Of a stretch of DNA of 33,263 nucleotides, positions 997-33,263 are shown piece by piece; the stretch's first letter is position 1; every line of letters starts with the position of its first letter. Below the pieces are notes generated by a model. It had not been told where the DNA came from and ran no database searches. It saw only the letters and a list, made by a program, of their open reading frames with translations. A program made the translations under genes and the position numbers. Origin of the DNA: a virus (Duplodnaviria; Heunggongvirae; Uroviricota; Caudoviricetes); the IMG/VR virus record IMGVR_UViG_2703718853_000003, positions 1-33,263 of that record; one strand, given 5' to 3'.

Positions 997-1089
997 AAAG
1001 CCCTCCGATGACGCTGTTTACTTCTACTACTTGAAAATTAATGCAATTTTCTTTCGTACATTTACTACACACATATGCTGAATAAATCG

Positions 1090-1389
1090 TCAGCCAGTCT
1101 TCTGGTCTGAGTGGTGCAAGGTTGTTGAGTCTTGCCCAATGTGTGCGAGAGCCGGGGCTATTTGTCCAGCTGCTGGATCTGTTTCATCAAACATGAACCA
1201 GTCACGATACTTGCGAAAGCGTGGATGCTTAAACAGCTTCATACCTGCTTCCATAGGCATTTTTGATTTTCCTGATTCATATCCATGATATGTGTAGTAA
1301 TTAATTCCAATTAATTCAGCAAGTTCCTTAGTTTTAAGGCGTTCGGATTCACGGATGAGCTTTAGTTTCTCACTTTGTTCACTTGACAT
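1090..1389 (-). CDS. C: Immunity repressor C (P2 C-like)
   Basis: ATG at 1389 preceded by GGAG gives 99 aa, the length I recall for P2 C. It is divergent from cox and directly upstream of int, the P2 lysogenic arrangement. The ORF-track start at 1407 is a TTG. Confidence 0.75.
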   Translation of the reverse strand: MSSEQSEKLKLIRESERLKTKELAELIGINYYTYHGYESGKSKMPMEAGMKLFKHPRFRKYRDWFMFDETDPAAGQIAPALAHIGQDSTTLHHSDQKTG

Positions 1390-1407
1390 AATTTTGCTAA
1401 TCTCCAA

Positions 1408-1482
1408 TTATATTGTTACTTGGCAATTTGCGATTCACTCAAAAAGGCTCTAGATGGCTCCAGTTGGTGAATCGCAAATCTT
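1408..1482. promoter_or_regulatory. C/cox divergent switch region with 13-bp perfect inverted repeat (candidate operator and face-to-face promoters)
   Basis: atttgcgattcac at 1426-1438 and its reverse complement gtgaatcgcaaat at 1468-1480, located between the divergent C and cox start codons. Confidence 0.5.
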
Positions 1483-1854
1483 ATGGAGGATAGCAAAGTG
1501 ACGACAAATGTAGAAATTTCTTGTCCAACTAGCGATGAGGCAAGTTTCGAAAATGAAGCCAAACGTAAAAGCATTCAGATTTCAGAGCGCCCATCTGATT
1601 TGCTGTCGAAAGAAGGTTTTGCTCTTTACATCGGTAAGACACCACGCGCGGTGGCTGAAATGGCTAAAGCAGGAAAGCTGCCAGCCTTCTACATGACAGA
1701 CCCATTAAAACCAAGAGGGAAAGCTGAATTATGGATTAATCGCCGTGAGTGGGACAAGTACGCAGCCCAACTGGTTGATGAAGCTCCGACAGAATGGCAT
1801 GACTGGAAAAATCGCATTAGTTACAGCAAATCAAGACATGGCCGTGCGGCTTAA
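1483..1854 (+). CDS. cox: Cox/Apl-like excisionase and transcriptional regulator
   Basis: First rightward gene after the switch. The segment GKTPRAVAEMAKAGKLPAFYMTDP resembles the Cox HTH region. At 123 aa it is longer than P2 Cox (91 aa). The start may instead be GTG 1498, which follows GGAGGA. Confidence 0.6.
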   Translation: MEDSKVTTNVEISCPTSDEASFENEAKRKSIQISERPSDLLSKEGFALYIGKTPRAVAEMAKAGKLPAFYMTDPLKPRGKAELWINRREWDKYAAQLVDEAPTEWHDWKNRISYSKSRHGRAA

Positions 1855-1864
1855 GGTGGAAAGG

Positions 1865-2035
1865 ATGAACGAGCCTCGTTGTATTGCTCAGTTACTGCGT
1901 AACGAAAGCCCCAGGGCGATTGACTTCACCATCACCCACGGTAAGGGGCGTAAGGGAATCATTATCCGCACCAAAAAACAGAGTCCGTTAAAAAAGGCTC
2001 TGACCTTTCTGAAAAGCCGGAGGGTCTGGAAATGA
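1865..2035 (+). CDS. Small early hypothetical protein (P2 orf78 position)
   Basis: ATG at 1865 preceded by AAGGTGGA; 56 aa; its stop overlaps the B start (ATGA). The ORF-track start at 1745 overlaps cox and is less likely. Confidence 0.4.
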   Translation: MNEPRCIAQLLRNESPRAIDFTITHGKGRKGIIIRTKKQSPLKKALTFLKSRRVWK

Positions 2036-2532
2036 CAGTGATGACGCTCAATCTCGTCGAAAAACAGCCAGCAACTATGCGCCGGATAATTGGTAAGCAT
2101 CTGGCCGTCCCTCGCTGGCGGGATACATGTGATTATTATAATCAGATGATGGAGCGCGAACGGTTAACGGTTTGCTTTCATGCGCAGTTAAAACAGCGTC
2201 ACGCAACGATGCGTTTTGAAGAAATGAACGACGTCGAACGTGAACGGCTGGTTTGTGCAATTGATGAATTGCGTGGGGCATTCTCAAAACGCCGTCAGGT
2301 TGGCGCAAGTGAGTATGCATATATTAGTTTTTTAACAGTCAGTCAGCGTCGTACTTTATTTATGCATGCCGGATTGACTGAAAAAGAATTCAACCAGCCA
2401 TACTGGCGAATTAATGAAGAGTCATGTTACTGGCGTGATGCTTTATTCCGTGCATTACGTGAATTATTCAGCCTGTTTGAGTATGCACCGACAATTCTGA
2501 CGTCGGTAAAACCAGAGCAATATCTGCATTAA
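2032..2532 (+). CDS. B: Replication protein B (P2 gpB-like)
   Basis: 166 aa, the length I recall for P2 B, and in the expected position after cox. Confidence 0.7.
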   Translation: MTVMTLNLVEKQPATMRRIIGKHLAVPRWRDTCDYYNQMMERERLTVCFHAQLKQRHATMRFEEMNDVERERLVCAIDELRGAFSKRRQVGASEYAYISFLTVSQRRTLFMHAGLTEKEFNQPYWRINEESCYWRDALFRALRELFSLFEYAPTILTSVKPEQYLH

Positions 2533-2595
2533 GTAATTAACCAGAGTTTTAAACGCACTTAATTGTGCGGGGCTTCTTTTTGCCTGGAGAAAGTC

Positions 2596-2820
2596 ATGCA
2601 TACAGTTTCTGAAAATCAGTGCGGTAAATACGCATTACTGCTGCAACAGGCCAGAACCGAAGCACAGGCCGACGCAGCGACGCGCTTTTCTTCTCATCTT
2701 GATGCCATGATTCGCCACATCACAAAGGCGGAGTTATCCCGCGTAGAGATAGTCGAGCTGCTCAGTCAGGAGTCGGAAAAATTTCACAATATCGGATTGT
2801 CTCGCGGGGAGGTGCTTTGA
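2596..2820 (+). CDS. Early hypothetical protein (P2 orf80 position)
   Basis: ATG at 2596 preceded by GGAGAAAG; 74 aa. Confidence 0.5.
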
Positions 2821-3122
2821 TGTCCTGTTCTCGTTCAGTTGTATTACTGAATAACGCCTTAAAAATCACCGTTATGAAAAATGGCGATTTATCTCTTATT
2901 CAACTTGGTCTTGATAAAGAAAAACGCGAAATAACTGAGTCTGTTATCGCGATTTATCAGAACGAATTAAATCTCCTGTCTGATGTGGTCAATTTACTTG
3001 TTAAGCGCGCTGTATTTCACAAGCAAATCTCCTCCGTGGATGAACTGACGAAATTAACGACAGAAATTGCCAGCTATTGCGCTGATGAATTTAAAAAACT
3101 TAACGACAAAAGGAGCTGGTAA
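2820..3122 (+). CDS. Early hypothetical protein (P2 orf81 position)
   Basis: ATG at 2820 overlaps the upstream stop and is preceded by GGGGAGGTG; 100 aa. Confidence 0.5.
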   Translation: MSCSRSVVLLNNALKITVMKNGDLSLIQLGLDKEKREITESVIAIYQNELNLLSDVVNLLVKRAVFHKQISSVDELTKLTTEIASYCADEFKKLNDKRSW

Positions 3123-3346
3123 TGCCGGACAACGTAGATTTTATTCAGGAACAACAGGCTGAATTACTGGAGCGTCAGATTAACGCGGCAAGGGTAAAAC
3201 ATGGCGGTGCTTCTGCGCTGGTTTGCGAAGAGTGTGACGCGCCAATACCTGCTGCCCGTCGTGCGGCTTACCCGTCAGCCACGCGTTGTGTTTCCTGTCA
3301 GTCAGTCTTTGAAGCAAAAAACAAACATTACCGGAGAACGGCATGA
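3122..3346 (+). CDS. TraR/DksA-family C4 zinc-finger protein (P2 orf82 position)
   Basis: 74 aa with CEECDAPIP...CVSCQ, a C4 zinc finger typical of phage TraR/DksA-like proteins. Start overlaps the upstream stop (TAATG). Confidence 0.7.
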   Translation: MPDNVDFIQEQQAELLERQINAARVKHGGASALVCEECDAPIPAARRAAYPSATRCVSCQSVFEAKNKHYRRTA

Positions 3347-3618
3347 GTATTCGTATTGAAATTGGCGAACGTTATGTCGTTACCAGTGACAGCTTTCAGT
3401 TTATTCTCCACGAGAAAAAGAGAGCGGAAAGCGGTAAAAACGCCGGTCAGGAATGGCTGGCGGTGGTTGGTTATTACCCGAAATTAAGCCAGCTCGTTTC
3501 CGGCCTGATGCATCACGATATTCTGACCGGAAGCGCAAAGTCTTTTGCTGATTTAAACGCGCAGGTTGAGCAACTCAGCAAGCGTTGTTCAGAGGCTTTT
3601 GGCTCATATGGCCGTTAA
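3343..3618 (+). CDS. Early hypothetical protein (P2 orf83 position)
   Basis: 91-aa ORF, ATGA-coupled to the upstream gene. Confidence 0.5.
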   Translation: MSIRIEIGERYVVTSDSFQFILHEKKRAESGKNAGQEWLAVVGYYPKLSQLVSGLMHHDILTGSAKSFADLNAQVEQLSKRCSEAFGSYGR

Positions 3619-5728
3619 AGCCTCCGGGCGTTTTGTCCCTCCGTCAGCATTTGCCGCAGGCACCGGTAAGGCGTTTACCGGTGCTTATGCATGGAACGCG
3701 CCACGCGAGGCTGTCGGGCGCGAAAGACCCCTTACACGTGACGAGATGCGTCAGGTGCAAGGTGTTTTATCCACGATTAACCGCCTGCCTTACTTTTTGC
3801 GCTCGCTGTTTACTTCACGCTATGACTACATCCGGCGCAATAAAAGCCCGGTACACGGGTTTTATTTCCTCACATCCACTTTTCAGCGTCGTTTATGGCC
3901 GCGCATTGAGCGTGTGAATCAGCGCCATGAAATGAACACCGACGCGTCGTTGCTGTTTCTGGCAGAGCGTGACCACTATGCGCGCCTGCCGGGAATGAAT
4001 GACAAGGAGCTGAAAAAGTTTGCCGCCCGTATCTCATCGCAGCTTTTCATGATGTATGAGGAACTCAGCGATGCCTGGGTGGATGCGCATGGCGAAAAAG
4101 AATCGCTGTTTACGGATGAGGCGCAGGCTCACCTGTATGGTCATGTTGCTGGCGCTGCACGTGCTTTCAATATTTCCCCTCTCTACTGGAAAAAATACCG
4201 TAAAGGACAGATGACCACGAGGCAGGCATATTCTGCCATTGCCCGTCTGTTTAACGATGAGTGGTGGACTCATCAGCTTAAAGGCCAGCGTATGCGCTGG
4301 CATGAGGCGTTACTGATTGCTGTCGGGGAGGTCAATAAAGACCGTTCTCCTTATGCCAGTAAACATGCCATTCGTGATGTGCGTGCGCGCCGCCAGGCAA
4401 ATCTGGAATTTCTTAAATCGTGTGACCTTGAAAACAGGGAAACCGGCGAGCGCATCGACCTTATCAGTAAGGTGATGGGCAGTATTTCTAATCCTGAAAT
4501 TCGCCGGATGGAGCTGATGAACACCATTGCCGGTATTGAGCGTTACGCCGCCGCAGAGGGTGATGTGGGGATGTTTATCACGCTGACCGCGCCGTCAAAG
4601 TATCACCCGACACGTCAGGTCGGAAAAGGCGAAAGTAAAACCGTCCAGCTAAATCACGGCTGGAACGATGAGGCATTTAATCCAAAGGATGCGCAGCGTT
4701 ATCTCTGCCGTATCTGGAGCCTGATGCGCACGGCATTCAAGGATAATGACTTACAGGTCTACGGTTTGCGTGTCGTCGAGCCACACCACGACGGAACGCC
4801 GCACTGGCATATGATGCTTTTTTGTAATCCACGCCAGCGTAACCAGATTATTGAAATCATGCGTCGCTACGCGCTCAAAGAGGATGGAGACGAAAGAGGA
4901 GCTGCGCGAAACCGTTTTCAGGCAAAACACCTTAACCGGGGCGGTGCTGCGGGGTATATCGCGAAATACATCTCAAAAAACATCGATGGCTATGCACTGG
5001 ATGGTCAGCTCGATAACGACACCGGCAGGCCGCTGAAAGACACAGCCGCGGCTGTTACCGCATGGGCGTCAACGTGGCGCATACCACAATTTAAAACGGT
5101 TGGCCTGCCGACAATGGGGGCTTACCGTGAACTACGCAAATTGCCCCGCGGCGTCAGCATTGCTGATGAGTTTGACGAGCGCGTCGAGGCTGCACGCGCC
5201 GCCGCAGACAGTGGTGATTTTGCGCTGTATATCAGCGCGCAGGGCGGGGCAAATGTCCCGCGCGATTGTCAGACTGTCAGGGTCGCCCGTAGTCCGTCGG
5301 ATGACGTTAACGAGTACGAGGAAGAAGTCGAGAGAGTGGTCGGCATTTACGCGCCGCATCTCGGCGCGCGTCATATTCATATCACCAGAACGACGGACTG
5401 GCACATTGTGCCGAAAGTTCCGGTCGTTGAGCCTTTGACTTTAAAAAGCGGCATCGCCGCGCCTCGGAGTCCTGTCAATAACTGTGGAAAGCTCTCCGGT
5501 GGTGATGCTTCGTTACCGGCTCCCACACCTTCTGAGCACGCCGCAGCAGTGCTTAATCTGGTTGATGACGGTGTTATCGAATGGAATGACCCGGAGGTCG
5601 TGAGGGCGCTCAGGGGCGCATTAAAACACGGGCTGAGAACGCCAAATCGTCAGCAAGGAAACGGAAGCCCGTTAAAACCACATGAAATAGCACCGTCGGG
5701 CAGATTGAACAGGTGGGAACGATTGTAA
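3608..5728 (+). CDS. A: Replication initiation endonuclease A (rolling-circle HUH nickase)
   Basis: About 706 aa from ATG 3608. Contains HWHMMLF (HUH motif) and a YIAKYISK catalytic-tyrosine motif. The track start at 3566 overlaps the previous gene more, so the internal ATG was preferred. Confidence 0.85.
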   Translation: MAVKASGRFVPPSAFAAGTGKAFTGAYAWNAPREAVGRERPLTRDEMRQVQGVLSTINRLPYFLRSLFTSRYDYIRRNKSPVHGFYFLTSTFQRRLWPRIERVNQRHEMNTDASLLFLAERDHYARLPGMNDKELKKFAARISSQLFMMYEELSDAWVDAHGEKESLFTDEAQAHLYGHVAGAARAFNISPLYWKKYRKGQMTTRQAYSAIARLFNDEWWTHQLKGQRMRWHEALLIAVGEVNKDRSPYASKHAIRDVRARRQANLEFLKSCDLENRETGERIDLISKVMGSISNPEIRRMELMNTIAGIERYAAAEGDVGMFITLTAPSKYHPTRQVGKGESKTVQLNHGWNDEAFNPKDAQRYLCRIWSLMRTAFKDNDLQVYGLRVVEPHHDGTPHWHMMLFCNPRQRNQIIEIMRRYALKEDGDERGAARNRFQAKHLNRGGAAGYIAKYISKNIDGYALDGQLDNDTGRPLKDTAAAVTAWASTWRIPQFKTVGLPTMGAYRELRKLPRGVSIADEFDERVEAARAAADSGDFALYISAQGGANVPRDCQTVRVARSPSDDVNEYEEEVERVVGIYAPHLGARHIHITRTTDWHIVPKVPVVEPLTLKSGIAAPRSPVNNCGKLSGGDASLPAPTPSEHAAAVLNLVDDGVIEWNDPEVVRALRGALKHGLRTPNRQQGNGSPLKPHEIAPSGRLNRWERL

Positions 5729-5949
5729 ATACCCCATATAAGAGTTGTTCTTGCTCAACATGGCATCTGAACGCAAAGATAAAAGCCTGGGAGGCATACA
5801 GATAGTCCTGCTGTAAGTTAGTTGGAAAAAGATTGATTTACTTTATTACAGGAAGCCTCGATAAAATAATTCTAACGTGGATAAGGATATAAATTTATTA
5901 TAATGAATCTGTCAATATTATAATAAATGTTATTTTTAAAGAGATGAAA

Positions 5950-5985
5950 GGTAGGGTTGTTGTTTGTTGGTTTTTGTGATATAAT
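5950..5985 (+). promoter_or_regulatory. Candidate sigma70 promoter with extended -10 (TGaTATAAT) for the cargo ATPase operon
   Basis: TGATATAAT at 5977-5985 with a TTGTTG-like -35 about 18 bp upstream, inside an AT-rich intergenic region about 40 bp before the ATPase start. Confidence 0.4.
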
Positions 5986-6025
5986 ATTAAATTCATGTAA
6001 CTAGTAAATGCAAATGGAAAAAAGC

Positions 6026-7162
6026 ATGAGAATAAAATCACTGGAGACATATAACTCTCACAGTAAATTGAAAATTAATAAAATAGAATTCAAATCACTG
6101 ACCTTATTGGTTGGTGCTTCAGGTGTAGGGAAAACACAAATACTTCGTTCTATCAATAAAATAAAGTCTATCGCACATGGTGATTCCGTTAGTGGGTTTT
6201 GCTGGAACGTTGAGTTTAATGCTGAAGGTAATGATTATCAATGGTCTGGTGAGTTTGAGGCGCTGGAGGATTATGATGATTTTACTTATGGAATGTTTCA
6301 TTTTGATGATGACGACAAGGTTGAACCAAAAATTATAAAAGAAGAAGTTAAAATCAATGGTTCAATTATTATCACCAGAAGTGGCGATGATATCGTTTAT
6401 AATGACAGTAAAACAGTTAAGCTGGCTTCTACAGTTAGTATAGTTCATCACTTGCGTGAGGAAGATGATATTTCGGTTATACACAAGTCATTTTCACGAA
6501 TTGTGCAAGTTGATGATGATGAAATGCATAAGGTGTTTCCTAGAAAAAATAAAGATGCTTCAGAGGATGAAGAGCTTAGCATCAATGATATCAGAGAGAA
6601 GTCATTCTCTTTGAGTGCTAAGTTGTATTTGTGTCAAGAAAAACAACCAGTCTACTTTCATCAAATTAAAAATTCATTTGTGGAGATTTTTCCATATATT
6701 GAAGATATAAAGGTGGTTAAGGTTGATACAAGAGGGATTCCTTTCTTTGTTCATTCTGTATATGCACTCAAGGTTAAGGAAAGAGGGATTGATGAGTGGA
6801 TTTCGCACAATTCAATGTCTACCGGGATGTTGAAAACATTTGTCCAACTGGCATATCTGCATCTTAGCCCGACGGGAACTGTGTTCTTAATTGATGAGTT
6901 CGAGAATGGCTTTGGTGTTAACTGTATTAATGATATAACAGATGTGCTACTACATCATGGTAATGATGTTCAGTTTATTTTGACGAGTCATCATCCTTAT
7001 ATTATAAATAACATACCGCTTGATAACTGGAAAATTATTTCAAGGAAGGCCGGGGTTGTTGATAACTATTCTGCGGATTTTTTTAATTTAAAAGAATCCA
7101 ATCATGAGGCGTTTACTAAATTAATAAATTTAAGCGTTTATTTTGATGGTGCGGATAGATGA
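6026..7162 (+). CDS. ABC/SMC-like P-loop ATPase (AAA_15/AAA_21-like; OLD N-terminal / AriA-like), cargo gene
   Basis: Walker A GASGVGKT, ABC-signature-like SMSTGMLK, Walker B VFLIDEFENG, H-loop-like LTSHHP. The N-terminus MRIKSLE is typical of this ATPase class. Start could also be ATG 6008 or 6014. AT-rich codon usage unlike the backbone. Confidence 0.8.
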   Translation: MRIKSLETYNSHSKLKINKIEFKSLTLLVGASGVGKTQILRSINKIKSIAHGDSVSGFCWNVEFNAEGNDYQWSGEFEALEDYDDFTYGMFHFDDDDKVEPKIIKEEVKINGSIIITRSGDDIVYNDSKTVKLASTVSIVHHLREEDDISVIHKSFSRIVQVDDDEMHKVFPRKNKDASEDEELSINDIREKSFSLSAKLYLCQEKQPVYFHQIKNSFVEIFPYIEDIKVVKVDTRGIPFFVHSVYALKVKERGIDEWISHNSMSTGMLKTFVQLAYLHLSPTGTVFLIDEFENGFGVNCINDITDVLLHHGNDVQFILTSHHPYIINNIPLDNWKIISRKAGVVDNYSADFFNLKESNHEAFTKLINLSVYFDGADR

Positions 7163-7869
7163 ATTTGTATATTTTGGCTGAGGGGCGACAAACAGAGCGC
7201 AGAATCTATCCGGCATGGATAGGCGTTCTATCTCCATCTTTAAAGCAAGTTGAGTGTTTGTCTGCAATAGATAAAAACAACTATTATTTTATAAGCGGCG
7301 AGGGATATCCTCGTATGATTGATGTGACGCTTATTAATGCAATTAAAGATATACATGATAACCCTAAATTTACCGATTTTTGGGTTGTGCTAGACTCTGA
7401 AGGAGAGGATGTTGAGGCAAGGAGAGAGCTTGTTAGAAATAAGATTGATTCTTCTGGTATAGATATATCTCATTGTGAAGTAAATATAATAGTTCAAAAT
7501 CCGTGCATAGAAACGTGGGGGCTAGGGAATCGAGTCATTATTTCGCCAAATAAGTTGACTGAATCTTTTTTGGACTATTATGAGCACTATGATGTGTCAT
7601 CCAATGATCCAGAGGGTATGGGGAAGCCTCTTGCCTATGACGGATCAATTGCTAAGTATCACGAGAGTTATTTAAAAAGTATGCTTGCTTTAAGAAATGC
7701 AATGTATACGAAAAAAAATCCAGCAGCATTGATGGAGCCTTCATATTTGCAACAGCTTATATCCAGAGCTTATGCTGAGGATGGACATATACCAAGCTTT
7801 AGGCATTTTCATACGTTGGCTACTCAGCTTGAGGCTAAAGCGAAAATGTTGGAAAGCCGTGTAGCGTAG
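7159..7869 (+). CDS. Small TOPRIM-like partner protein (DUF4276/DUF4435-like, putative nuclease), cargo gene
   Basis: 236 aa; start ATG overlaps the ATPase stop (ATGA). N-terminal LYILAEG (conserved Glu) and VVLDSEGED (acidic DxE/D cluster) fit a TOPRIM-like signature. The family call is inferred from motifs only. Confidence 0.6.
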   Translation: MNLYILAEGRQTERRIYPAWIGVLSPSLKQVECLSAIDKNNYYFISGEGYPRMIDVTLINAIKDIHDNPKFTDFWVVLDSEGEDVEARRELVRNKIDSSGIDISHCEVNIIVQNPCIETWGLGNRVIISPNKLTESFLDYYEHYDVSSNDPEGMGKPLAYDGSIAKYHESYLKSMLALRNAMYTKKNPAALMEPSYLQQLISRAYAEDGHIPSFRHFHTLATQLEAKAKMLESRVA

Positions 7870-7875
7870 AATTGA

Positions 7876-7919
7876 CGACATCATGCATTTTTGTGCATGA
7901 TGTCGCATTTGTTTTTTTA
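7876..7919 (+). terminator. Rho-independent terminator after the cargo operon
   Basis: 12-bp perfect stem cgacatcatgca / tgcatgatgtcg (7876-7887 and 7894-7905), followed by a T-rich tract ending in seven T. Confidence 0.7.
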
Positions 7920-8003
7920 TGTCCTCTCTAACCAATATTGCTCTGTTCGTTAGTATTTGTAGCGGGCATGCACCTGCATTAAAACCGACCCATGAAGTGG
8001 GCG

Positions 8004-8022
8004 GGCGAGGCGGGGAAAGCAC
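8004..8022. other. cos site (19-nt cohesive end GGCGAGGCGGGGAAAGCAC)
   Basis: Matches the P2 cohesive-end sequence as I remember it, at the expected place between the old/tin region and Q. Confidence 0.6.
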
Positions 8023-8162
8023 TGCGCGCTGGCGGTGGTGCTGATTTTATTTTTTCAGCGTCTCAGCGCGTCGTGATGGCATTTAGTCGGCCTGCAGGGG
8101 CGTTGGTGTGTCTGCGGGGTGTTTTGTGCGGTGGTGAGCGTGTGAGGGCGTGATGACGGGGT

Positions 8163-8187
8163 GTAAAAAAGCCGCCCGCAGGCGGCG
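8163..8187 (-). terminator. Rho-independent terminator downstream of Q (minus strand)
   Basis: gccgcc-cgca-ggcggc hairpin at 8171-8186; on the minus strand it is followed by a six-T run (plus-strand A-run 8165-8170), immediately 3' of the Q stop. Confidence 0.6.
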
Positions 8188-8191
8188 TTGT

Positions 8192-9226
8192 TCAGTCGTT
8201 GTCAGTGTCCAGTGAGTAGTTTTTAAAGCGGATGACCTCCTGACCGAGCCAGCCGTTTATCTCGCGGATCCTGTCCTGTAACGGGATAAGCTCATTGCGG
8301 ACAAAGACCTTTGCCACTTTCTCAATATCCCCCAGTGACCCGACGTTCTCCGGCTTGCCGCCCATCAACTGAAAGGGGATGCGGTGTGCGTCCAGCAGAT
8401 CTGCGGCGCTGACTTTTTTGATATTAAAAAAATCGTCCTTCGTTGCCACTTCACTGAGCGGGATAATTTTAATGCCGTCGGCTTTCCCCTGTGGGGCATA
8501 GAGAAACAGATTTTTAAAGTTGTTGCGGCCTTTCGACTTAACCATGTTTTCGCGAAGCATTTCGATATCGTTGCGATCCTGCACGGCATCGGTGACGTAC
8601 ATGATATATCCGGCATGAGCACCGTTTTCGTAATACTTGCGGCGAAACAGCGTGGCCGACTCATTCAGCCAGGCAGAGTTAAGGGCGCTGAGATATTCCG
8701 GCAGGCCGTACAGCTCCTGATTAATATCCGGCTCCAGCAGGTGAAACACGGAGCCGGGCGTGAAAGGTGTCGGCTCGTTGAAGGACGGCACCCACCAGTA
8801 AACATCCTCCTCCACGCCACGGCGGGTATATTTTGCCGGTGAGGTTTCCAGTCTGATGACCTTACCGGTGGTGCTGTAACGCTTTTCCAGAAACGCATTA
8901 CCGAACACCAGAAAATCCAGCACAAAGCGGCTGAAATCCTGCTGAGAAAGCCACGGATGCGGGATAAATGTTGAGGCCAGAATATTACGTTTGACGTAAA
9001 TCGGTGAGCTGTGATGCACGGCAGCACGCAGGCTTTTTGCCAGACCGGTAAAGCTGACCGGTGGCTCATACCATCTGCCGTTACTGATGCACTCGACGTA
9101 ATCCAGAATGTCACGGCGGTCGAGTACCGGCACCGGCTCACCAAAGGTGAATGCCTCCATTTTCGGGGCGCTGGCGGTCATTGTTTTTGCCGCAGGTCGC
9201 GGTGTTTTCCCTTTTTTCTTGCTCAT
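8192..9226 (-). CDS. Q: Portal protein (gpQ)
   Basis: 344 aa, the length I recall for P2 Q; minus strand next to cos, directly downstream of P. Confidence 0.85.
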   Translation of the reverse strand: MSKKKGKTPRPAAKTMTASAPKMEAFTFGEPVPVLDRRDILDYVECISNGRWYEPPVSFTGLAKSLRAAVHHSSPIYVKRNILASTFIPHPWLSQQDFSRFVLDFLVFGNAFLEKRYSTTGKVIRLETSPAKYTRRGVEEDVYWWVPSFNEPTPFTPGSVFHLLEPDINQELYGLPEYLSALNSAWLNESATLFRRKYYENGAHAGYIMYVTDAVQDRNDIEMLRENMVKSKGRNNFKNLFLYAPQGKADGIKIIPLSEVATKDDFFNIKKVSAADLLDAHRIPFQLMGGKPENVGSLGDIEKVAKVFVRNELIPLQDRIREINGWLGQEVIRFKNYSLDTDND

Positions 9227-10998
9227 CAGTAAAACTCCAGAATGGTGGATGTCAGCGGGGTGCTGATACCGGCGGTGAGTGGCTCATTTAACAGGGCGTG
9301 CATGGTCGCCCAGGCGAGGTCGGCGTGGCTGGCTTCCTCGCTGCGGCTGGCCTCATAGGTGGCGCTGCGTCCGCTGCTGGTCATGGTCTTGCGGATAGCC
9401 ATAAACGAGCTGGTGATGTCGGTGGCGCTGACGTCATATTCCAGACAGCCACGGCGGATAACGTCTTTTGCCTTGAGCACCATTGCGGTTTTCATTTCCG
9501 GCGTGTAGCGGATGTCGCGCGCGGCGGGATAGAACGAGCGCACGAGCTGGAACACGCCGACACCGAGGCCGGTGGCATCAATACCGATGTATTCGACGTT
9601 GTATTTTTCGGTGAGTTTGCGGATGGATTCCGCCTGAGTGGCAAAGTCCATGCCTTTCCACTGGTGACGCTCAAGTATTCTGAATTTGCCACCGGCCACC
9701 ACCGGCGGTGCCAGTACCACGCATCCGGCGCTGTCGCCACGGTGTGACGGGTCGTAACCAATCCATACCGGGCGGGAGCCGAACGGATTCGCGGCAAACG
9801 GCGCATAGTCTTCCCATTCTTCCAGCGTGTCGACCATGCAGCGTTGCAGCTCCTCGAACGGGAACACCGACGCCTTGTCGTCAACAAATTCACACATGAA
9901 CAGGTTTTTAAAATCGTCGGCGCTGTTTTCGCGTTTGAGCTGCTCAATGTCGAACAGCGTGCAGCCGCCTTTCAGGGCGTCCTCAATGGTGACAATCTGC
10001 CGCCACTGGCCGTCCGCACAGAGAAGTCCACCGGCAAGGGCGTTATGACTGACGTCGATTTCCACGCGTTCGGCGGCGCTGGCGCGTCCCCGGTTAAACA
10101 GTTCACCCGACCAGAACGGGTAGGCGTCGTGCGCCAGCGTGGACGGGGTGGAGAAATAGGTCGAACGCAGGTGACTCTGTGAGGCCATACCTGATGCCAC
10201 CTTACGCAGTACCTGAAAATTCGGGATCCAGAAAATCTCGTCGACGTACAGGTCGCCGTTATGGCTCTGTGCGGTGTTGGAGTTGGTGCCGAGAAAAATT
10301 AGTTTTGCGCCGTTATTGCCCAGGACAATCGGGTCACCGGTCAGGTCAACGTCAACCAGACGGGCAAAGGCGATGATGTATTCGCGGAACACATACGCCT
10401 GCGTTTTACTGGCCGACAGAAAAATCTGGTTATGGCCGGTTTTCAGGGCGCGCAGCAGCGCCTCGCGGGAAAAATAAAACGTTGCGCCAATCTGGCGGGA
10501 TTTCAGGATATCGCGGATGCGGTGCTCAAGCCCGGCGCGATACCAGTGCAACTGATAGTCGAAAGACTGCTCAAAGAAAATCTGCTCCAGCTTTTCGATG
10601 GCTTCGTCACTGAAAAAATTCTTTTTCGGTTTGCGACGCCCGCCTTTGTTGCGGTTAGCGACGTTCGGATTAAGGTCTGCCTCGTTGCCGGTCTGACTGT
10701 AACGGTTGACCCGTGCCAGTCGTTCAATCTGGCGTCCGAGCAGGTCAATTTCCTTGAAGTCACCGCCGGTTTTCTGCGGTTTGATGATGAGCTGGGTCAG
10801 CCGCGCTTCCAGACTCATTTCGACACGGCTGATGGGGGCAACACTGTCCCAGCCGTCGCGCTGTTTCCAGCTCTGCACCGTCGGGCGTTTCATCTGCAAC
10901 ATGGCGGCAATCTGCGGCACGGAAAACCCCTGCCAGTACAGCAGCGCCGCCTGACGACGCGGGTCGTGTAAAAGAGTGGTGTCTGTGGTGATGGTCAT
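9226..10998 (-). CDS. P: Terminase large (ATPase) subunit (gpP)
   Basis: About 590 aa from ATG 10998 (MTITTDTTLL) preceded by GAGG. The ORF-track start at 11028 is a TTG. Confidence 0.85.
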   Translation of the reverse strand: MTITTDTTLLHDPRRQAALLYWQGFSVPQIAAMLQMKRPTVQSWKQRDGWDSVAPISRVEMSLEARLTQLIIKPQKTGGDFKEIDLLGRQIERLARVNRYSQTGNEADLNPNVANRNKGGRRKPKKNFFSDEAIEKLEQIFFEQSFDYQLHWYRAGLEHRIRDILKSRQIGATFYFSREALLRALKTGHNQIFLSASKTQAYVFREYIIAFARLVDVDLTGDPIVLGNNGAKLIFLGTNSNTAQSHNGDLYVDEIFWIPNFQVLRKVASGMASQSHLRSTYFSTPSTLAHDAYPFWSGELFNRGRASAAERVEIDVSHNALAGGLLCADGQWRQIVTIEDALKGGCTLFDIEQLKRENSADDFKNLFMCEFVDDKASVFPFEELQRCMVDTLEEWEDYAPFAANPFGSRPVWIGYDPSHRGDSAGCVVLAPPVVAGGKFRILERHQWKGMDFATQAESIRKLTEKYNVEYIGIDATGLGVGVFQLVRSFYPAARDIRYTPEMKTAMVLKAKDVIRRGCLEYDVSATDITSSFMAIRKTMTSSGRSATYEASRSEEASHADLAWATMHALLNEPLTAGISTPLTSTILEFY

Positions 10999-11171
10999 GA
11001 ATACCTCGCCGTGATGAATACACGGCAAGGCTACTGAGTCGCGCCCCGCGATTCGCTAAGGTGCTGTTGTGTCAGTGATAAGCCATCCGGGACTGATGGC
11101 GGAGGATGCGCATCGTCGGGAAACTGATGCCGACATGTGACTCCTCTAATCACTATTCAGGACTCCTGACA

Positions 11172-12026
11172 ATGGCAAAAAAAGTCTCAAAATTCTTTCG
11201 TATCGGCGTTGAGGGTGACACCTGTGACGGGCGTGTCATCAGTGCGCAGGATATTCAGGAAATGGCCGAAACCTTTGACCCGCGAGTCTATGGTTGCCGC
11301 ATTAACCTGGAACATCTGCGCGGCATCCTGCCTGACGGTATTTTTAAGCGTTATGGCGATGTGGTCGAACTGAAGGCCGAAAAGATTGACGATGATTCGG
11401 CGCTGAAAGGCAAATGGGCGCTGTTTGCGAAAATCACCCCGACCGATGACCTTATCGCGATGAACAAGGCCGCGCAGAAGGTCTATACCTCAATGGAAAT
11501 TCAGCCGAACTTTGCCAATACAGGCAAATGTTATCTGGTGGGTCTGGCCGTCACCGATGACCCGGCAAGCCTCGGCACGGAATACCTGGAATTCTGCCGC
11601 ACGGCAAAACACAACCCTCTGAACCGCTTCAAATTAAGCCCTGAAAACCTGATTTCAGTGGCAACGCCTGTTGAGCTGGAATTTGAAGACCTGCCTGAAA
11701 CCGTGTTCACCGCCCTGACCGAAAAGGTGAAATCCATTTTTGGCCGCAAACAGGCCAGCGATGACGCCCGTCTGAATGACGTGCATGAAGCGGTGACCGC
11801 TGTTGCTGAACATGTGCAGGAAAAGCTGAGCGCCACTGAGCAGCGACTCGCTGAGATGGAAACCGCCTTTTCCGCACTTAAGCAGGAGGTGACTGACAGG
11901 GCGGATGAAACCAGCCAGGCATTCAGCCGCCTGAAAAACAGTCTCGACAACACCGAAAGTCTGATCCAGCAGCGCCGCAGCAAGGCCACCGGTGGTGGCG
12001 GTGACGCCCTGATGACGAACTGCTGA
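11172..12026 (+). CDS. O: Capsid scaffolding protein (gpO)
   Basis: 284 aa from ATG 11172 (MAKKVSKFF); divergent from P, with coiled-coil-like C-terminal half. Confidence 0.85.
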   Translation: MAKKVSKFFRIGVEGDTCDGRVISAQDIQEMAETFDPRVYGCRINLEHLRGILPDGIFKRYGDVVELKAEKIDDDSALKGKWALFAKITPTDDLIAMNKAAQKVYTSMEIQPNFANTGKCYLVGLAVTDDPASLGTEYLEFCRTAKHNPLNRFKLSPENLISVATPVELEFEDLPETVFTALTEKVKSIFGRKQASDDARLNDVHEAVTAVAEHVQEKLSATEQRLAEMETAFSALKQEVTDRADETSQAFSRLKNSLDNTESLIQQRRSKATGGGGDALMTNC

Positions 12027-16927: not shown

Positions 16928-17378
16928 GTTTAAGCGTTTTGAAGACCGGCTGACCGGACTGACTGAATCGCTGTCACCGTCAGGGCGTCGGCGACTGGCG
17001 ATAGATATTGCGAAGAAGCTGCGTCAGCGCCAGCAGCAGCGAATTAAATTACAAAAAGCCCCGGATGGTACGCCGTATGTACCGAGAAAAAACCAACCAG
17101 TACGAAATAAGAAAGGCCGGATAAAGCGGGAAATGTTTGTGAAATTACGCACTAACCGGTTTATGAAAGCAACAGGTAGCGAGAGTGCGGCGGTGGTGGA
17201 GTTTGCCAGCGGAGTACAACGAATTGCGCGAGTACATCAATTAGGGCTTAGGGATAAGCCGGGGCGTAATAGTGCTGTGGTGGAATATCCTGTTCGTGAG
17301 TTATTTGGTTTTGACAAGGAATCTATACAATTGATAGAAAGGGAGTTATTAGTGATTCTATCGAAAGATGTTATATGA
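16920..17378 (+). CDS. S: Tail completion protein S
   Basis: 152 aa in the P2 S position; the 3' end runs into AT-rich sequence. Confidence 0.8.
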   Translation: MNEFKRFEDRLTGLTESLSPSGRRRLAIDIAKKLRQRQQQRIKLQKAPDGTPYVPRKNQPVRNKKGRIKREMFVKLRTNRFMKATGSESAAVVEFASGVQRIARVHQLGLRDKPGRNSAVVEYPVRELFGFDKESIQLIERELLVILSKDVI

Positions 17379-18130
17379 GACGGGTGTTTGTGGATAAAAA
17401 GTTTTCCATTTTGAGAAAAAGAGTAAAGCATTCTCAAAAGAAAGTTATGGATTGTATTATTGCTGACCATAATGCTGATATATGTGTGTTATGCGGGAGT
17501 TCTGACGATATTACTCGTGAGCACATTATTCCTCAGTGGGCCTTTGAGTCAAATGCTGAAAAATCTTTAATTAATAAAAAGAATAATCAGTCAACTCATT
17601 ACATTAAAGCCACTGTACCAGCATGCAGAGTGTGCAATTCTGATTTGCTGGGAGTGTTTGAGTATAACCTGAAGAAATTTCTTACGGAAAAGAGGGGCGA
17701 TGAGTTAACAGATTATGAATATGATTGCATCATATGGTGGTTGCAATACATGGGCTTTAAGTTGCAATTAATGGATTTACGGACCCGCTTTCTCAGGTTT
17801 AAAGGGGGGGATTATATCCCTTTCCTTGCAAACTTCCCGGTTGCAATGTTTTGGGGGAATGTCGATACGACACCGGAGGATGTCTTCAGGATTATAAGAA
17901 AATCGCGACGCAATCTGATGTCGAAATGGAAGGATAAAAAACATAATTCTTTGATGGTTTTTGAAACATCAAACAAGAGTTTTCATTTCTTTCATAAGGT
18001 TGATGAATTTATTTTTATTGAAATGCCTCAGGTTAAGAAGGCGTTTTTCTTCTTTTTTAATAAAGAAATTGACAGCCATGATTTAGCTCATGAGGAGTGT
18101 ATGAAGATTATAGAGAAGTACTACAACTAA
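17375..18130 (+). CDS. HNH-motif protein (putative HNH endonuclease-domain moron, P2 orf30 position)
   Basis: 251 aa, AT-rich, ATGA-coupled to S. CVLCGSSDDITREHIIPQW ... CRVCNSDL matches a CxxC...(E/D)H..P...CxxCN HNH / His-Me finger pattern. Confidence 0.6.
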   Translation: MRRVFVDKKFSILRKRVKHSQKKVMDCIIADHNADICVLCGSSDDITREHIIPQWAFESNAEKSLINKKNNQSTHYIKATVPACRVCNSDLLGVFEYNLKKFLTEKRGDELTDYEYDCIIWWLQYMGFKLQLMDLRTRFLRFKGGDYIPFLANFPVAMFWGNVDTTPEDVFRIIRKSRRNLMSKWKDKKHNSLMVFETSNKSFHFFHKVDEFIFIEMPQVKKAFFFFFNKEIDSHDLAHEECMKIIEKYYN

Positions 18131-18207
18131 TATTTATTATGTTGTGTCACGGCTGACAGAGTCCTCCATGATTGCTGCTGGTATCGTCCGGCGGCATCCT
18201 TCCCGTC

Positions 18208-18843
18208 ATGAACACTCTCGCAAATATTCAGGAACTCGCGCGCGTACTGCGCAACATGATTCGCACCGGCATTATCGTCGAAACCGACCTTAACGCCGGT
18301 CGCTGCCGTGTGCAGACCGGCGGCATGTGTACCGACTGGCTTCAGTGGCTGACCCATCGCGCCGGACGTTCGCGCACATGGTGGGCACCTTCCGTGGGGG
18401 AGCAGGTGCTGATTCTGGCCGTGGGTGGTGAACTCGACACGGCGTTCGTTCTGCCGGGGATTTATTCCAGTGATAACCCCGCGCCGTCTGCGTCGGAGGA
18501 TGCCCTGCATATCCGTTTCCCTGACGGGGCGGTGATTGAGTATGAACCCGAAACCAGTGCACTCACGGCAAGCGGAATTAAAACGGCCAGCGTGATGGCT
18601 TCTGATTCTGTTACTGCCACGGTGCCGGTGGTCACGGTGAAAGCATCAACCCGCGTCACCCTGGACACACCGGAAGTGGTCTGCACCAACAAACTGACTA
18701 CCGGCACGCTGGAAGTGCAGAAGGGCGGGACGATGCGCGGCAACATCGCGCATACCGGCGGTGAACTCTCATCAAACGGTAAGGTACTGCATACCCATAA
18801 ACACCCCGGCGACAGCGGCGGCACAACCGGGAGTCCTCTATGA
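18208..18843 (+). CDS. V: Baseplate spike/assembly protein V
   Basis: 211 aa from ATG 18208 (MNTLANIQELA), the length I recall for P2 V. Confidence 0.85.
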   Translation: MNTLANIQELARVLRNMIRTGIIVETDLNAGRCRVQTGGMCTDWLQWLTHRAGRSRTWWAPSVGEQVLILAVGGELDTAFVLPGIYSSDNPAPSASEDALHIRFPDGAVIEYEPETSALTASGIKTASVMASDSVTATVPVVTVKASTRVTLDTPEVVCTNKLTTGTLEVQKGGTMRGNIAHTGGELSSNGKVLHTHKHPGDSGGTTGSPL

Positions 18844-19187
18844 CAGCGCGTTATCTCGGAATGAATCGCAGTGATGGCCTGACTGTCACTGACCTTGAAC
18901 ATATCAGCCAGAGTATCGGCGATATCCTGCGCACACCGGTCGGTTCACGGGTGATGCGTCGTGATTACGGCTCGTTGCTGGCGTCAATGATTGACCAGCC
19001 GCAGACCCCGGCGCTTGAGTTGCAGATTAAGGTCGCCTGTTACATGGCAGTGCTGAAATGGGAACCCCGCGTCACCCTGTCATCCGTCATCACTGAGCGC
19101 AGCTTTGACGGGCGAATGACGGTCACGTTAACCGGCCAGCACAACGACACCGGCCAGCCACTTTCGTTAACCATCCCTGTGAGTTGA
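18840..19187 (+). CDS. W: Baseplate protein W
   Basis: 115 aa, the length I recall for P2 W. Confidence 0.85.
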   Translation: MTARYLGMNRSDGLTVTDLEHISQSIGDILRTPVGSRVMRRDYGSLLASMIDQPQTPALELQIKVACYMAVLKWEPRVTLSSVITERSFDGRMTVTLTGQHNDTGQPLSLTIPVS

Positions 19188-19191
19188 AACC

Positions 19192-20100
19192 ATGCCGATT
19201 ATCGACCTGAACCAGCTACCCGCACCGGATGTGGTCGAGGAGCTGGACTTTGAAACCATTCTTGCCGAACGCAAGGCGACACTGATTTCCCTTTACCCGG
19301 AAGACCAGCAGGAGGCGGTCGCCCGTACCCTGACGCTGGAATCCGAGCCTCTCGTCAAACTGCTGGAGGAAAATGCTTATCGTGAGCTTATCTGGCGTCA
19401 GCGTGTGAATGAGGCCGCACGGGCGGTGATGCTGGCCTGTGCCGCCGGTAATGACCTTGATGTGATTGGTGCCAATTACAACACCACGCGCCTGATTATC
19501 ACTCCGGCAGATGATTCGACTATCCCGCCGACACCGGCAGTGATGGAATCTGACACCGATTATCGTCTGCGTATTCAGCAGGCGTTTGAGGGCTTAAGCG
19601 TCGCCGGGTCGGTGGGGGCCTATCAGTATCATGGTCGCAGTGCTGACGGGCGTGTCGCGGATATCTCTGTCACCAGTCCGTCTCCGGCCTGCGTCACCAT
19701 CTCCGTGCTGTCACGTGAAAATAACGGCGCCGCATCCGAAGACCTGCTGGCCGTGGTGCGTAACGCCCTTAATGGCGAGGACGTCAGGCCGGTGGCCGAC
19801 CGCGTGACCGTGCAGTCTGCCGCCATCGTTGAATACCAGATAAACGCCACGCTGTATCTTTACCCTGGTCCCGAAAGCGAACCCATTCGCGCTGCCGCCG
19901 TGAAAAAACTGGAAGCGTATATCACGGCACAGCACCGGCTGGGGCGTGACATCCGTCTGTCTGCCATTTATGCCGCTTTGCATGTGGAAGGTGTGCAGCG
20001 TGTCGAACTGGCTGCACCACTGGCCGACATCGTGCTCAACAGTACGCAGGCGTCTTTCTGTACTGAATACCGCGTCGTGACCGGAGGCTCGGATGAGTGA
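19192..20100 (+). CDS. J: Baseplate protein J
   Basis: 302 aa, the length I recall for P2 J. Confidence 0.85.
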   Translation: MPIIDLNQLPAPDVVEELDFETILAERKATLISLYPEDQQEAVARTLTLESEPLVKLLEENAYRELIWRQRVNEAARAVMLACAAGNDLDVIGANYNTTRLIITPADDSTIPPTPAVMESDTDYRLRIQQAFEGLSVAGSVGAYQYHGRSADGRVADISVTSPSPACVTISVLSRENNGAASEDLLAVVRNALNGEDVRPVADRVTVQSAAIVEYQINATLYLYPGPESEPIRAAAVKKLEAYITAQHRLGRDIRLSAIYAALHVEGVQRVELAAPLADIVLNSTQASFCTEYRVVTGGSDE

Positions 20101-20623
20101 TTCGCGACTGCTGCCGACCGGCTCATCACCGCTTGAGGTCGCCGCCGCAAAAGCCTGTGCGGAAATTGAAAAAACGCCGGTCAGTATTCGTGAGCTGTGG
20201 AACCCGGATACCTGTCCGGCAAATTTGCTGCCGTGGCTGGCGTGGGCGTTTTCGGTCGACAGGTGGGATGAGAAGTGGCCGGAAGCGACAAAACGCGCCG
20301 TTATCCGCGATGCGTATTTCATCCACTGTCATAAAGGCACTATAGGTGCAATCCGGCGTGTGGTGGAGCCGCTCGGCTATCTCATCAACGTGACGGAGTG
20401 GTGGGAAAACAGCGACCCGCCCGGCACCTTCCGGCTTGATATTGGTGTACTGGAAAGTGGCATCACAGAGGCAATGTATCAGGAAATGGAACGGCTGATT
20501 GCTGATGCCAAACCTGCAAGCCGTCACCTTATTGGCCTGAACATTACCCGGGACATTCCCGGCTACCTGTTCGCCGGTGGTGTGGCTTACGACGGCGATG
20601 TAATTACGGTTTACCCCGGATAA
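20093..20623 (+). CDS. I: Baseplate/tail-fibre attachment protein I
   Basis: 176 aa, the length I recall for P2 I. Confidence 0.85.
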   Translation: MSDSRLLPTGSSPLEVAAAKACAEIEKTPVSIRELWNPDTCPANLLPWLAWAFSVDRWDEKWPEATKRAVIRDAYFIHCHKGTIGAIRRVVEPLGYLINVTEWWENSDPPGTFRLDIGVLESGITEAMYQEMERLIADAKPASRHLIGLNITRDIPGYLFAGGVAYDGDVITVYPG

Positions 20624-20633
20624 GTGAGGAATA

Positions 20634-22883
20634 ATGAGCACAAAATTCAAAACCGTTATCACCACTGCCGGTGCAGCAAAGCTGGCAGCGGCAACCGCGC
20701 CGGGAGGGCGGAAGGTCAACATTACCACGATGGCCGTCGGGGATGGCGGTGGTAAATTGCCTGTCCCGGATGCCGGACAGACCGGGCTTATCCACGAAGT
20801 CTGGCGACATGCGCTGAACAAAATCAGCCAGGACAAACGAAACAGTAATTATATTATCGCAGAGCTGGTTATTCCGCCGGAGGTGGGCGGTTTCTGGATG
20901 CGTGAGCTTGGCCTGTACGATGATGCTGGAACGTTAATTGCCGTGGCGAACATGGCTGAAAGTTATAAGCCAGCTCTTGCCGAAGGCTCAGGGCGTTCGC
21001 AGACCTGCCGCATGGTCATCATCGTCAGCAGTGTGGCCTCAGTGGCGCTGACCATTGACACCACAACGGTGATGGCAACGCAGGATTACGTTGATGACAA
21101 AATTGCAGAACATGAACAGTCACGACGTCACCCGGACGCCTCGCTGACCGCCAAAGGTTTTACTCAGTTAAGCAGTGCGACCAACAGCACGTCTGAAACA
21201 CTCGCCGCAACACCAAAAGCGGTAAAAGCAGCATATGACCTTGCTAACGGGAAATACACTGCACAGGACGCCACCACAGCGCGAAAAGGCCTTGTCCAGC
21301 TCAGTAGTGCCACCAACAGCACGTCTGAAACGCTCGCCGCAACACCAAAAGCGGTAAAAGCAGCATATGACCTTGCTAACGGGAAATACACTGCACAGGA
21401 CGCCACCACAGCGCGAAAAGGCCTTGTCCAGCTCAGTAGCGCCACCAACAGCGATTCTGAAACGCTTGCGGCAACGCCAAAGGCGGTTAAGACAGCGTAT
21501 GACCTTGCTAACGGGAAATACACTGCACAGGATGCCACCACAGCGCGAAAAGGTCTTGTCCAGCTCAGTAGCGCCACCAACAGTGATTCTGAAACGCTGG
21601 CTGCAACACCAAAAGCGGTGAAGTCTGCCTATGACAATGCTGAAAAACGTCTTCAGAAAGATCAGAACGGTGCGGATATTCCTGATAAAGGACGCTTCCT
21701 GAGTAACATTAATGTTTACAGCAAAGGTGAAGTGGATAAGAAAAAGGGAATGCGAAAGTATTCGTTTGCAGCCCCTGCAAATGTCGTTGCCGGGAAGTGG
21801 TATCCCGTTATCTTTCGCCGTGCTGCCAGCCTTTCAGGAGAAATGGCATCCCGCGTCGTTATTTCAACTGGTTGTTATAACGGCGATTATGTAATGAATA
21901 ACTGCGAGTTTAATGGCATGGTTATGCCCGGAGGCTGGACCGATCGTGGTTCATATGCGGCAGGTTATTTCTGGACGTATCAGACTAATGAGCGTTCAAT
22001 CCATTCCATTGTTACAAGCCTGAAAGATGATGATGTATGTAGTGTTTTTTATGTTGAAGCCAGAGCTTTCCCAGTACAAATTCTTGCAGAGGAAGGGCTA
22101 ACGGTTATTGTTCCGACAGAGGATTATGTCGTCGGTCAGACGACATATAAGTGGGGGGCAACTAATCCCGCTACAGAAAGCACGAACGTACAGGCTATTC
22201 TGGATTTTAAAAATGGACGTGGTTATTACTGTTCACATCCATTTATTTCCAGCCTTTCAGGAAATGCTGCAACAGCAACTAAGTTAGCGAACGCAAGAAA
22301 TATTAATGGTGTCAGATTTGATGGCTCTGCCGATATAAATATTAATACACTGGTATCCAGAAACCGTGTTACTGCATTAGGTGGGAGCGTAAAGGGGACA
22401 CCAGGTATTCAGATGTATGAGGCATACAACAATGGCTACCCAACAGCCTATGGTAATGTGCTTCATCTCACTGGCGTAACCGCTGTAGGAGAGGGTGAGT
22501 TACTTATTGGCTGGAGTGGAACCAGCGGTGCTCATGCTCCGGCATATATTCGCTCCCGACGAGATACCACAGATGCTAACTGGTCTGGATGGGCGCAACT
22601 ATATACAACTGCTCATAAACCCTCAGCGGGAGATGTTGGTGCATACACCAAAGCTGAGTCAGATTCACGTTATGTGAGAGACATGCGGCTGGGCGGTGCA
22701 TCTACATATAAACCAGCAAATAATGGTACTACATGGACGCATCAGGCTCCGTCAGGTTGCGTATATACCGGCATTATTGTTCAGGATACCGGCTCAAACT
22801 CTGCCGATAACATTGGTGGCGTATATTACAGACCGGTGCAGAAATACATTAACGGGACATGGTATAACGTGGCGCAGGTATAA
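20634..22883 (+). CDS. H: Tail fibre protein H
   Basis: 749 aa. Conserved N-terminus, tandem tail-fibre repeats in the middle, and an AT-richer divergent C-terminal (receptor-binding) part. Confidence 0.85.
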   Translation: MSTKFKTVITTAGAAKLAAATAPGGRKVNITTMAVGDGGGKLPVPDAGQTGLIHEVWRHALNKISQDKRNSNYIIAELVIPPEVGGFWMRELGLYDDAGTLIAVANMAESYKPALAEGSGRSQTCRMVIIVSSVASVALTIDTTTVMATQDYVDDKIAEHEQSRRHPDASLTAKGFTQLSSATNSTSETLAATPKAVKAAYDLANGKYTAQDATTARKGLVQLSSATNSTSETLAATPKAVKAAYDLANGKYTAQDATTARKGLVQLSSATNSDSETLAATPKAVKTAYDLANGKYTAQDATTARKGLVQLSSATNSDSETLAATPKAVKSAYDNAEKRLQKDQNGADIPDKGRFLSNINVYSKGEVDKKKGMRKYSFAAPANVVAGKWYPVIFRRAASLSGEMASRVVISTGCYNGDYVMNNCEFNGMVMPGGWTDRGSYAAGYFWTYQTNERSIHSIVTSLKDDDVCSVFYVEARAFPVQILAEEGLTVIVPTEDYVVGQTTYKWGATNPATESTNVQAILDFKNGRGYYCSHPFISSLSGNAATATKLANARNINGVRFDGSADININTLVSRNRVTALGGSVKGTPGIQMYEAYNNGYPTAYGNVLHLTGVTAVGEGELLIGWSGTSGAHAPAYIRSRRDTTDANWSGWAQLYTTAHKPSAGDVGAYTKAESDSRYVRDMRLGGASTYKPANNGTTWTHQAPSGCVYTGIIVQDTGSNSADNIGGVYYRPVQKYINGTWYNVAQV
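21156..21645 (+). repeat. About 3.7 tandem copies of a 132-bp (44-aa) in-frame phage tail-fibre repeat inside H
   Basis: Repeated LSSATNS(T/D)SETLAATPKAVKAAYDLANGKYTAQDATTARKGLVQ units with nearly identical nucleotide sequence. This is what produces the long antisense ORF 21164..21580. Confidence 0.85.
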
Positions 22884-22886
22884 TTT

Positions 22887-26564: not shown

Positions 26565-26660
26565 ATCTGTTGTTTCATCCACTGACCAGCCAGGTCAAAT
26601 AGCGTCTCATGCTCTGCACAACAGAAAATAGTTGCACCCATTAACCACGGAGTTAAACGG

Positions 26661-33044: not shown

Positions 33045-33263
33045 ATGTTTCATTGTCCTTTATGCCAGCATGCCGCACATGCGCGTACAAGCCGCTATAT
33101 CACTGACACGACAAAAGAGCGTTATCACCAGTGTCAGAACGTGAATTGCAGTGCCACGTTCATCACTTATGAGTCGGTACAGCGATACATCGTGAAGCCG
33201 GGAGAAGTCCACGCCGTAAGGCCGCACCCGTTGCCATCAGGGCAGCAAATTATGTGGATGTAA
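33045..33263 (+). CDS. ogr: Late-gene transcription activator Ogr (C4 zinc finger)
   Basis: 72 aa from ATG 33045 (MFHCPLCQHAAHARTSRYI...CQNVNCSATF), matching P2 Ogr as I recall it. Stop codon is the last three bases of the window. Confidence 0.85.
   Translation: MFHCPLCQHAAHARTSRYITDTTKERYHQCQNVNCSATFITYESVQRYIVKPGEVHAVRPHPLPSGQQIMWM

Follow-up and report, generated by a model that had tools for sequence, protein, structure and literature searches.

The P-O spacer and its flanking genes

The DNA analysed here, which we call the window, is 33,263 nucleotides long and was found to be a P2-type prophage reaching from the stop codon of int to the stop codon of ogr. Its gene order is collinear with positions 1-8992 of phage P2. 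A BLAST map against P2 yielded approximately 97% identity in the shared blocks and revealed non-P2 segments at 1-1864, 5758-8003, 16998-18206 and 21353-26441, which makes the window a mosaic relative of P2.

Genes P and O lie back-to-back in this prophage. The start codon of P is located on the reverse strand at 10996-10998 and that of O at 11172-11174. The spacer of 173 bp (10999-11171) that the original prediction had placed between the divergent starts was thus borne out by the sequence, and the spacer of P2, between the end of P at 2993 and the start of O at 3167, is of equal length. Window positions 10970-11200 aligned without gaps to positions 2965-3195 of P2 (AF063097), with an identity of 100%. 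Hence, the DNA is identical to the P2 late promoters PP and PO (AF063097 features 3016, 3057..3087 and 3127) over the spacer and both gene starts; spacer length and Ogr are also the same, and no difference was observed within the spacer. In a megablast comparison with phage records, 98 records had a query coverage of 80% or more, and for 74 of these the identity was at least 99%. In near-identical phages, the two flanking genes carry the annotations large terminase (P) and capsid scaffold (O). The leftward late operon P-Q begins with P (its open reading frame ends at 9226) and the rightward late operon with O, so that both promoters drive structural (late) operons, with the terminase on the left and the scaffold on the right.

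Longer reading frames were considered for both genes. A TTG-initiated frame of P extends up to 11028, and an in-frame ATG of O is found at 11106. Since each begins upstream of the respective transcription start, neither was used and the P2 start codons stand. The sequence AGGA at 11160-11163 is likely the ribosome-binding site of O. It is covered by a palindrome, TCAGGA-C-TCCTGA (11157-11169), which lies just before the ATG and is conserved in seven of the nine phages compared below. A hairpin of TCAGGA and TCCTGA in the O leader was rejected, as its folding was no better than that of shuffled sequences (z = -0.85); the palindrome may simply be the ribosome-binding region.

Table 1 Features of the P-O spacer and related sites, given in window positions
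Feature	Position	Strand	Basis or remark
Gene P, large terminase subunit	9226..10998	-	ATG at 10998; equals P2 P CDS 1221..2993, offset 8005
P operon transcription start (promoter PP)	11021	-	AF063097 misc_feature 3016(-), moved over via 100% identity
PP -10 hexamer TAGCCT (likely)	11028..11033	-	-12 to -7, from position relative to the annotated start
Activator (Ogr) binding region common to PP and PO	11062..11092	.	AF063097 misc_feature 3057..3087
Matrix match, pP/pO site	11064-11089	+	Rank 1 of 66,476, 17.6 bits
Core partial dyad TGT-N12-CCA	11068..11085	.	Read from sequence, aligned with other late-promoter sites
PO -10 hexamer GAAACT (likely)	11120..11125	+	-12 to -7, from position; inside invariant GGAAACT
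O operon transcription start (promoter PO)	11132	+	AF063097 misc_feature 3127(+), moved over via 100% identity
TGT-N12-CAC of the original prediction	11136..11153	+	Chance match in O mRNA leader, +5 to +22
Gene O, capsid scaffold/protease	11172..12026	+	P2 O CDS 3167..4021 plus 8005; ORF end 12026
Matrix match, window pV site	18139-18164		Rank 4, 14.1 bits
pV activator site TGT-N12-AGA	18143..18160	+	Matrix rank 4, 14.1 bits
Matrix match, rejected	23077-23102	-	Rank tied 2-3, 14.7 bits
Matrix match, window pF site	26567-26592		Rank tied 2-3, 14.7 bits
pF activator site TGT-N12-CCA	26571..26588	+	14.7 bits, tied 2nd-3rd; upstream of FI (ATG 26662)
ogr, trans-acting late activator, 72 aa, zinc-binding	33045..33263	+	72/72 residues identical to P2 Ogr

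Promoters and activator site of the spacer

The transcription starts of PP and PO were transferred from the P2 record AF063097 through the gap-free alignment. The two promoters are arranged back-to-back and their starts are separated by 111 bp. Judged by their distance from the starts, TAGCCT on the minus strand is likely the -10 hexamer of PP and GAAACT that of PO. No recognisable -35 element was observed at PP or PO; the -35 zones are non-consensus and have a conservation of 0.69. A sigma-70 consensus scan did not yield a promoter in the body of the spacer, and its sole match (11166-11193) overlaps the start codon of O. A weak core without a consensus promoter is the expected picture for activator-dependent promoters.

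The P2 record labels its feature 3057..3087 'activator binding site; pO, pP promoters', i.e. as a single site, and the sequence in the window is identical. Within this region, the core reads TGT-N12-CCA towards O and TGG-N12-ACA towards P, and matches the consensus TGT-N12-ACA at five of six positions. This consensus was described for PP, PO, PV and PF (PMC3931495), and Ogr binds inverted repeats centred at approximately -55 and works through RNA polymerase's alpha subunit (PMC3152322). The centre of the dyad (11076.5) is located 55.5 bp from both starts, a geometry that fits the published -55 rule as well as the consensus. An alignment with P2 late promoters, proposed as a check in the original prediction, places the dyad in register with P2 pV and P2 pF, and likewise with 186 pV, 186 pJ and P4 Psid I and II; its left half is conserved.

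Conservation was analysed in nine sequences, comprising the window and the P-O spacers of eight diverged Peduoviridae that are approximately 75-83% identical to the query. The relatives were Klebsiella phage ST147-VIM1phi7.1, Salmonella phages BIS20 and SW9, Erwinia phage EtG, Yersinia phage MDG45, Enterobacter phage ENT4 and the Yersinia enterocolitica phages 201.16 and 56.17, and the set includes the genera Peduovirus, Vimunumvirus, Eganvirus and Duonihilunusvirus. The mean column identity over the spacer was 0.71. Only two blocks were fully invariant, namely CTGTTGTG (11064-11071, 8/8), which is the left half-site of the dyad, and GGAAACT (11119-11125, 7/7), which holds the -10 element of PO. 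The distance from the TGT of the left half-site to GGAAACT is constant (52 bp in 9/9 sequences). A block of 10 bp in the -10 region of PP (11024-11033) showed a mean column identity of 0.91. In the right half of the dyad, CCA occurs in six phages, ACA in two (both from Y. enterocolitica) and ACT in one (ENT4), with the middle C being invariant; the Y. enterocolitica phages carry a perfect GTTGTG-N10-CACAAC. Three other inverted repeats in the spacer, I1 (11004-11030), I2 (11102-11117) and I4 (11082-11100), are not kept in the diverged phages and were rejected as chance occurrences. In the two Y. enterocolitica phages, a hypothetical CDS of 31 aa is annotated inside the P-O spacer (L010 343-438, L011 343-438), on the P strand and overlapping the PP region. 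It is probably an over-annotation.

A weight matrix of 26 columns was built from five annotated or recognisable sites outside the P/O spacer: P2 pV, P2 pF, 186 pJ and P4 Psid I and II, the P4 pair being two perfect dyads upstream of sid. In the position-weight-matrix scan that the original prediction had suggested, the plus strand at 11064-11089 came first of 66,476 positions, and a core-only matrix restricted to the half-site columns also ranked it first. The top three true matches fall just upstream of three places where late operons start. The match on the minus strand at 23077-23102, which tied with the pF site, was rejected; it lacks a TGT, its location is antisense within the tail-fibre assembly gene, and 68 of 200 shuffles contained scores of 14.1 bits or more.

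Statistically, the motif is weak. Of 200 dinucleotide-shuffled versions of the complete window, 13 attained the score of 17.6 bits at some position, and the five-site matrix is overfitted. Among random 173-mers taken from the window, 51% contain a TGT-N12-ACA with at most one mismatch. Perfect copies number 5 in the window, compared to 8.6 expected by chance, and none of them is found in the spacer or at any late promoter. The relaxed form TGT-N12-MMA has 65 matches in the window against 80 expected, which is uninformative alone. An extended pattern (N9 spacer) matched only the pO site, and the pF site of the window thus differs from P2 pF. Given these weak sequence statistics, the case rests on the identity to P2, the conservation, the -55.5/-55.5 geometry and the position of the top true matches.

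The window also carries the cognate activator. Ogr of P2 is a small zinc-binding protein, and its counterpart in the window includes the CX2C...CX4C cysteines.

The remaining late promoters follow the same pattern. The pV site is centred 56.5 bp upstream of the start codon of V (18208), the same geometry as in P2 (site 10243-10260, annotated start 10308). It lies inside a segment without homology to the pV region of P2, to which homology resumes only at 18207. The pF site is part of a segment whose P2 homologue is 17429-24254, the stretch in which the pF site of P2 (17555..17583) is also found. All four late promoters of the prophage match the consensus at five of six positions and none is perfect, which explains why a clean dyad could not be found by eye; the original prediction had reported no clean TGT-N12-ACA dyad, and the spacer indeed lacks a perfect one.

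The segment that replaces the orf30/pV region of P2 (window 16998-18206) features an ORF of 251 aa (17375-18130, plus strand) that precedes V and has no Pfam or PADLOC hit. The pV site of the window reads TGTGTCACGGCTGACAGA, unlike that of P2, and a perfect TGTCA-N4-TGACA palindrome spans 18145-18158.

Taken together, we conclude with high confidence that the spacer (10999-11171) is the pP/pO control region of P2, in which both promoters are served by one Ogr partial dyad at 11068-11085. The proposed divergent Ogr-dependent late promoters are thereby supported by the identity to P2, by the annotated starts and single site, and by the identical Ogr. Where the original prediction spoke of late promoters in the plural with a dyad, the site is real, but a single dyad is common to both. 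The present analysis itself established the sequence identity to P2, where the site lies and with what geometry, how well it is conserved, and that Ogr is identical; for the transcription starts, the Ogr dependence and the contact to the alpha subunit, we rely on the records of P2 and 186 and on the literature. With its dyad, a centre at -55, a weak core, a cognate activator, late operons on both sides and conservation among diverged phages, the region would, as far as sequence can indicate, be assigned to the P2-type (Ogr/B/delta-dependent) late promoter class. For P2, the pP/pO region already has its annotation in GenBank, as has the homologous region of 186, and in this respect nothing is new. 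Beyond correct annotation, the importance is small: the coordinates of two late promoters and of their shared Ogr site are fixed. For annotation practice, a literal search for TGT-N12-ACA would miss all four late promoters of this prophage, none being perfect, and the bare six-base consensus cannot tell real sites from chance matches. Annotation of such promoters in other prophages of the P2 type calls for either an extended matrix anchored on GTTGTG or homology to P2 or 186.

Alternative readings, comparison with 186 and P4, and the course of late expression

The shared site is asymmetric, scoring 17.6 bits when read towards O and 3.7 bits towards P, and in all unidirectional late promoters the strong TTGTG half is distal to the promoter. 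These observations would be compatible with separate sites, i.e. with 11068-11085 serving PO only and a second, degenerate Ogr site serving PP. We consider this very improbable. Elsewhere in the spacer, no position on either strand exceeds -3.8 bits, the records of P2 and 186 each annotate one site for both promoters, and between the two -10 regions the only conserved blocks belong to the site at 11068-11085. Moreover, since the starts of PP and PO are just 111 bp apart, the -55 positions of both promoters must be the same DNA.

The original prediction had pointed to a TGT-N12-CAC element near 11136-11153. This string is present, but its reading as an activator site did not hold. It resembles the consensus, with TGT in place and a permuted right half, and is situated just upstream of the start codon of O. 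In relation to the transcription start, however, it falls at +5 to +22, only 19 bp before the ATG, and a -55 site at this position would place the start of transcription inside gene O. TGT-N12-CAC is no commoner than chance, with 15 matches in the window compared to 17 ± 4 expected from shuffles. The matrix score of the element is -18.7 bits (rank 10,740). Its mean column identity (0.54) is the lowest in the spacer, and it spans an insertion of 8 bp that is found only in the P2 clade and is missing from all eight diverged relatives. The probability that it is the Ogr site of the O promoter is therefore regarded as negligible.

There is practically no chance that the spacer contains ordinary constitutive sigma-70 promoters with the conserved blocks as core elements and no activator: GGAAACT and TAGCCT(TGCC) do resemble weak -10 elements, but the sigma-70 scan found none within the spacer body, conservation of the -35 zones is poor and their sequence non-consensus, the invariant CTGTTGTG lies at approximately -68 to -61 when counted from the start of PO and approximately -43 to -50 when counted from that of PP, neither of which is a core-element position, and the literature reports strict Ogr dependence.

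The single shared Ogr site has a close counterpart in coliphage 186 (U32222), where a single B-protein site lies between the divergent promoters p12 and pV; it spans 3798..3817 and bears the label 'activation of pV and p12 promoters'. The architecture is the same: the terminase operon runs leftward, the scaffold operon runs rightward, and a single TGT-N12-CCA lies halfway between them. Measured to the outer ends of the promoter features in the record, the distance from the centre of the 186 site (3808.5) is approximately 55.5-56.5 bp. Both GTTGTG in the left half and the block GGAAACT are identical to those of the window. Differences concern the activator, which is B, a homologue of Ogr, as well as the 12-bp dyad interior, the leaders and the spacer length (165 compared to 173 bp). 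P4 Psid, which is activated by delta or Ogr, shares the half-site motif and the 12-bp spacing, and the interior of its site I begins with GTCAG as in pO. However, Psid is unidirectional and has two perfect TGT-N12-ACA sites (P4 9493 and 9531), whereas P2 has at pP/pO just one site, which is bidirectional and imperfect (CCA).

On the reading of one shared Ogr site, late expression from this region would proceed as follows. Ogr is made once replication is under way. Both weak-core promoters would depend on one Ogr dyad located exactly midway, at -55.5 from each start. Its action would then turn on two operons simultaneously, P-Q (terminase, portal) to the left and O-N-M-L... (scaffold, capsid, lysis, tail completion) to the right. 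In P2, the late expression of packaging and head genes is coordinated. Strict Ogr dependence was reported for the late promoters of P2 (PMC3931495, PMC3152322), and P2 late transcription requires Ogr together with an intact C-terminal domain of the RNA polymerase alpha subunit and is blocked by rpoA109 (PMC3152322).

The orientation of the site deserves mention in this context. The two halves have the same orientation in P2, 186 and the Klebsiella relative: the strong GTTGTG is always turned towards P and the degenerate CCA towards O. In the direction of O, the shared site resembles every unidirectional late promoter; in the direction of P, it is inverted. Such a polarity could be deliberate and set an unequal output, with low terminase and portal and high scaffold and capsid expression, a speculative idea to which we attach only a low probability. 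If true, the Y. enterocolitica phages with their perfect dyad would be without that bias.

Accessory segments of the prophage

The non-P2 segment at 5758-8003 harbours two overlapping genes (6008-7869, plus strand) where P2 has orf91/tin/old. The first codes for a 384-aa AAA_21/AbiEii-type ATPase, with AbiLi (8e-19) and AriA (1e-14) as best PADLOC matches, and the second for a 236-aa protein with a weak AbiLii match (8.5e-6). We regard the pair as a candidate anti-phage defence cassette of two genes, located in the known P2 hotspot.

In the non-P2 segment 21353-26441, a 459-aa RES-domain protein (4e-14) is encoded on the minus strand (24922-26301), where P2 has Z/fun. It has a weak match to a HEPN/RES N-terminal domain and no PADLOC match, and may represent toxin or defence cargo. 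The neighbouring ORFs at 23593-24282 and 24461-24766, both on the minus strand, matched no family.

The tail-fibre gene H (ORF 20634-22883) contains the 18-mer TGTATTTCCCGTTAGCAA, which recurs at 21241, 21373 and 21505 (21241-21522, minus strand). The resulting period of 132 bp suggests that the fibre contains tandem repeats of 44 aa. Off-register self-matches occur in this part of H in P2 as well.

The integrase/immunity end of the window (1-1864) yielded no blastn match to P2. It comprises an ORF of 331 aa (1-996, minus strand), which from its position we take to be int, a 105-aa HTH_19 repressor-like ORF (1090-1407, minus strand) and a 123-aa Phage_Cox protein (1483-1854, plus strand), suggesting that the immunity type of the window is different from that of P2.
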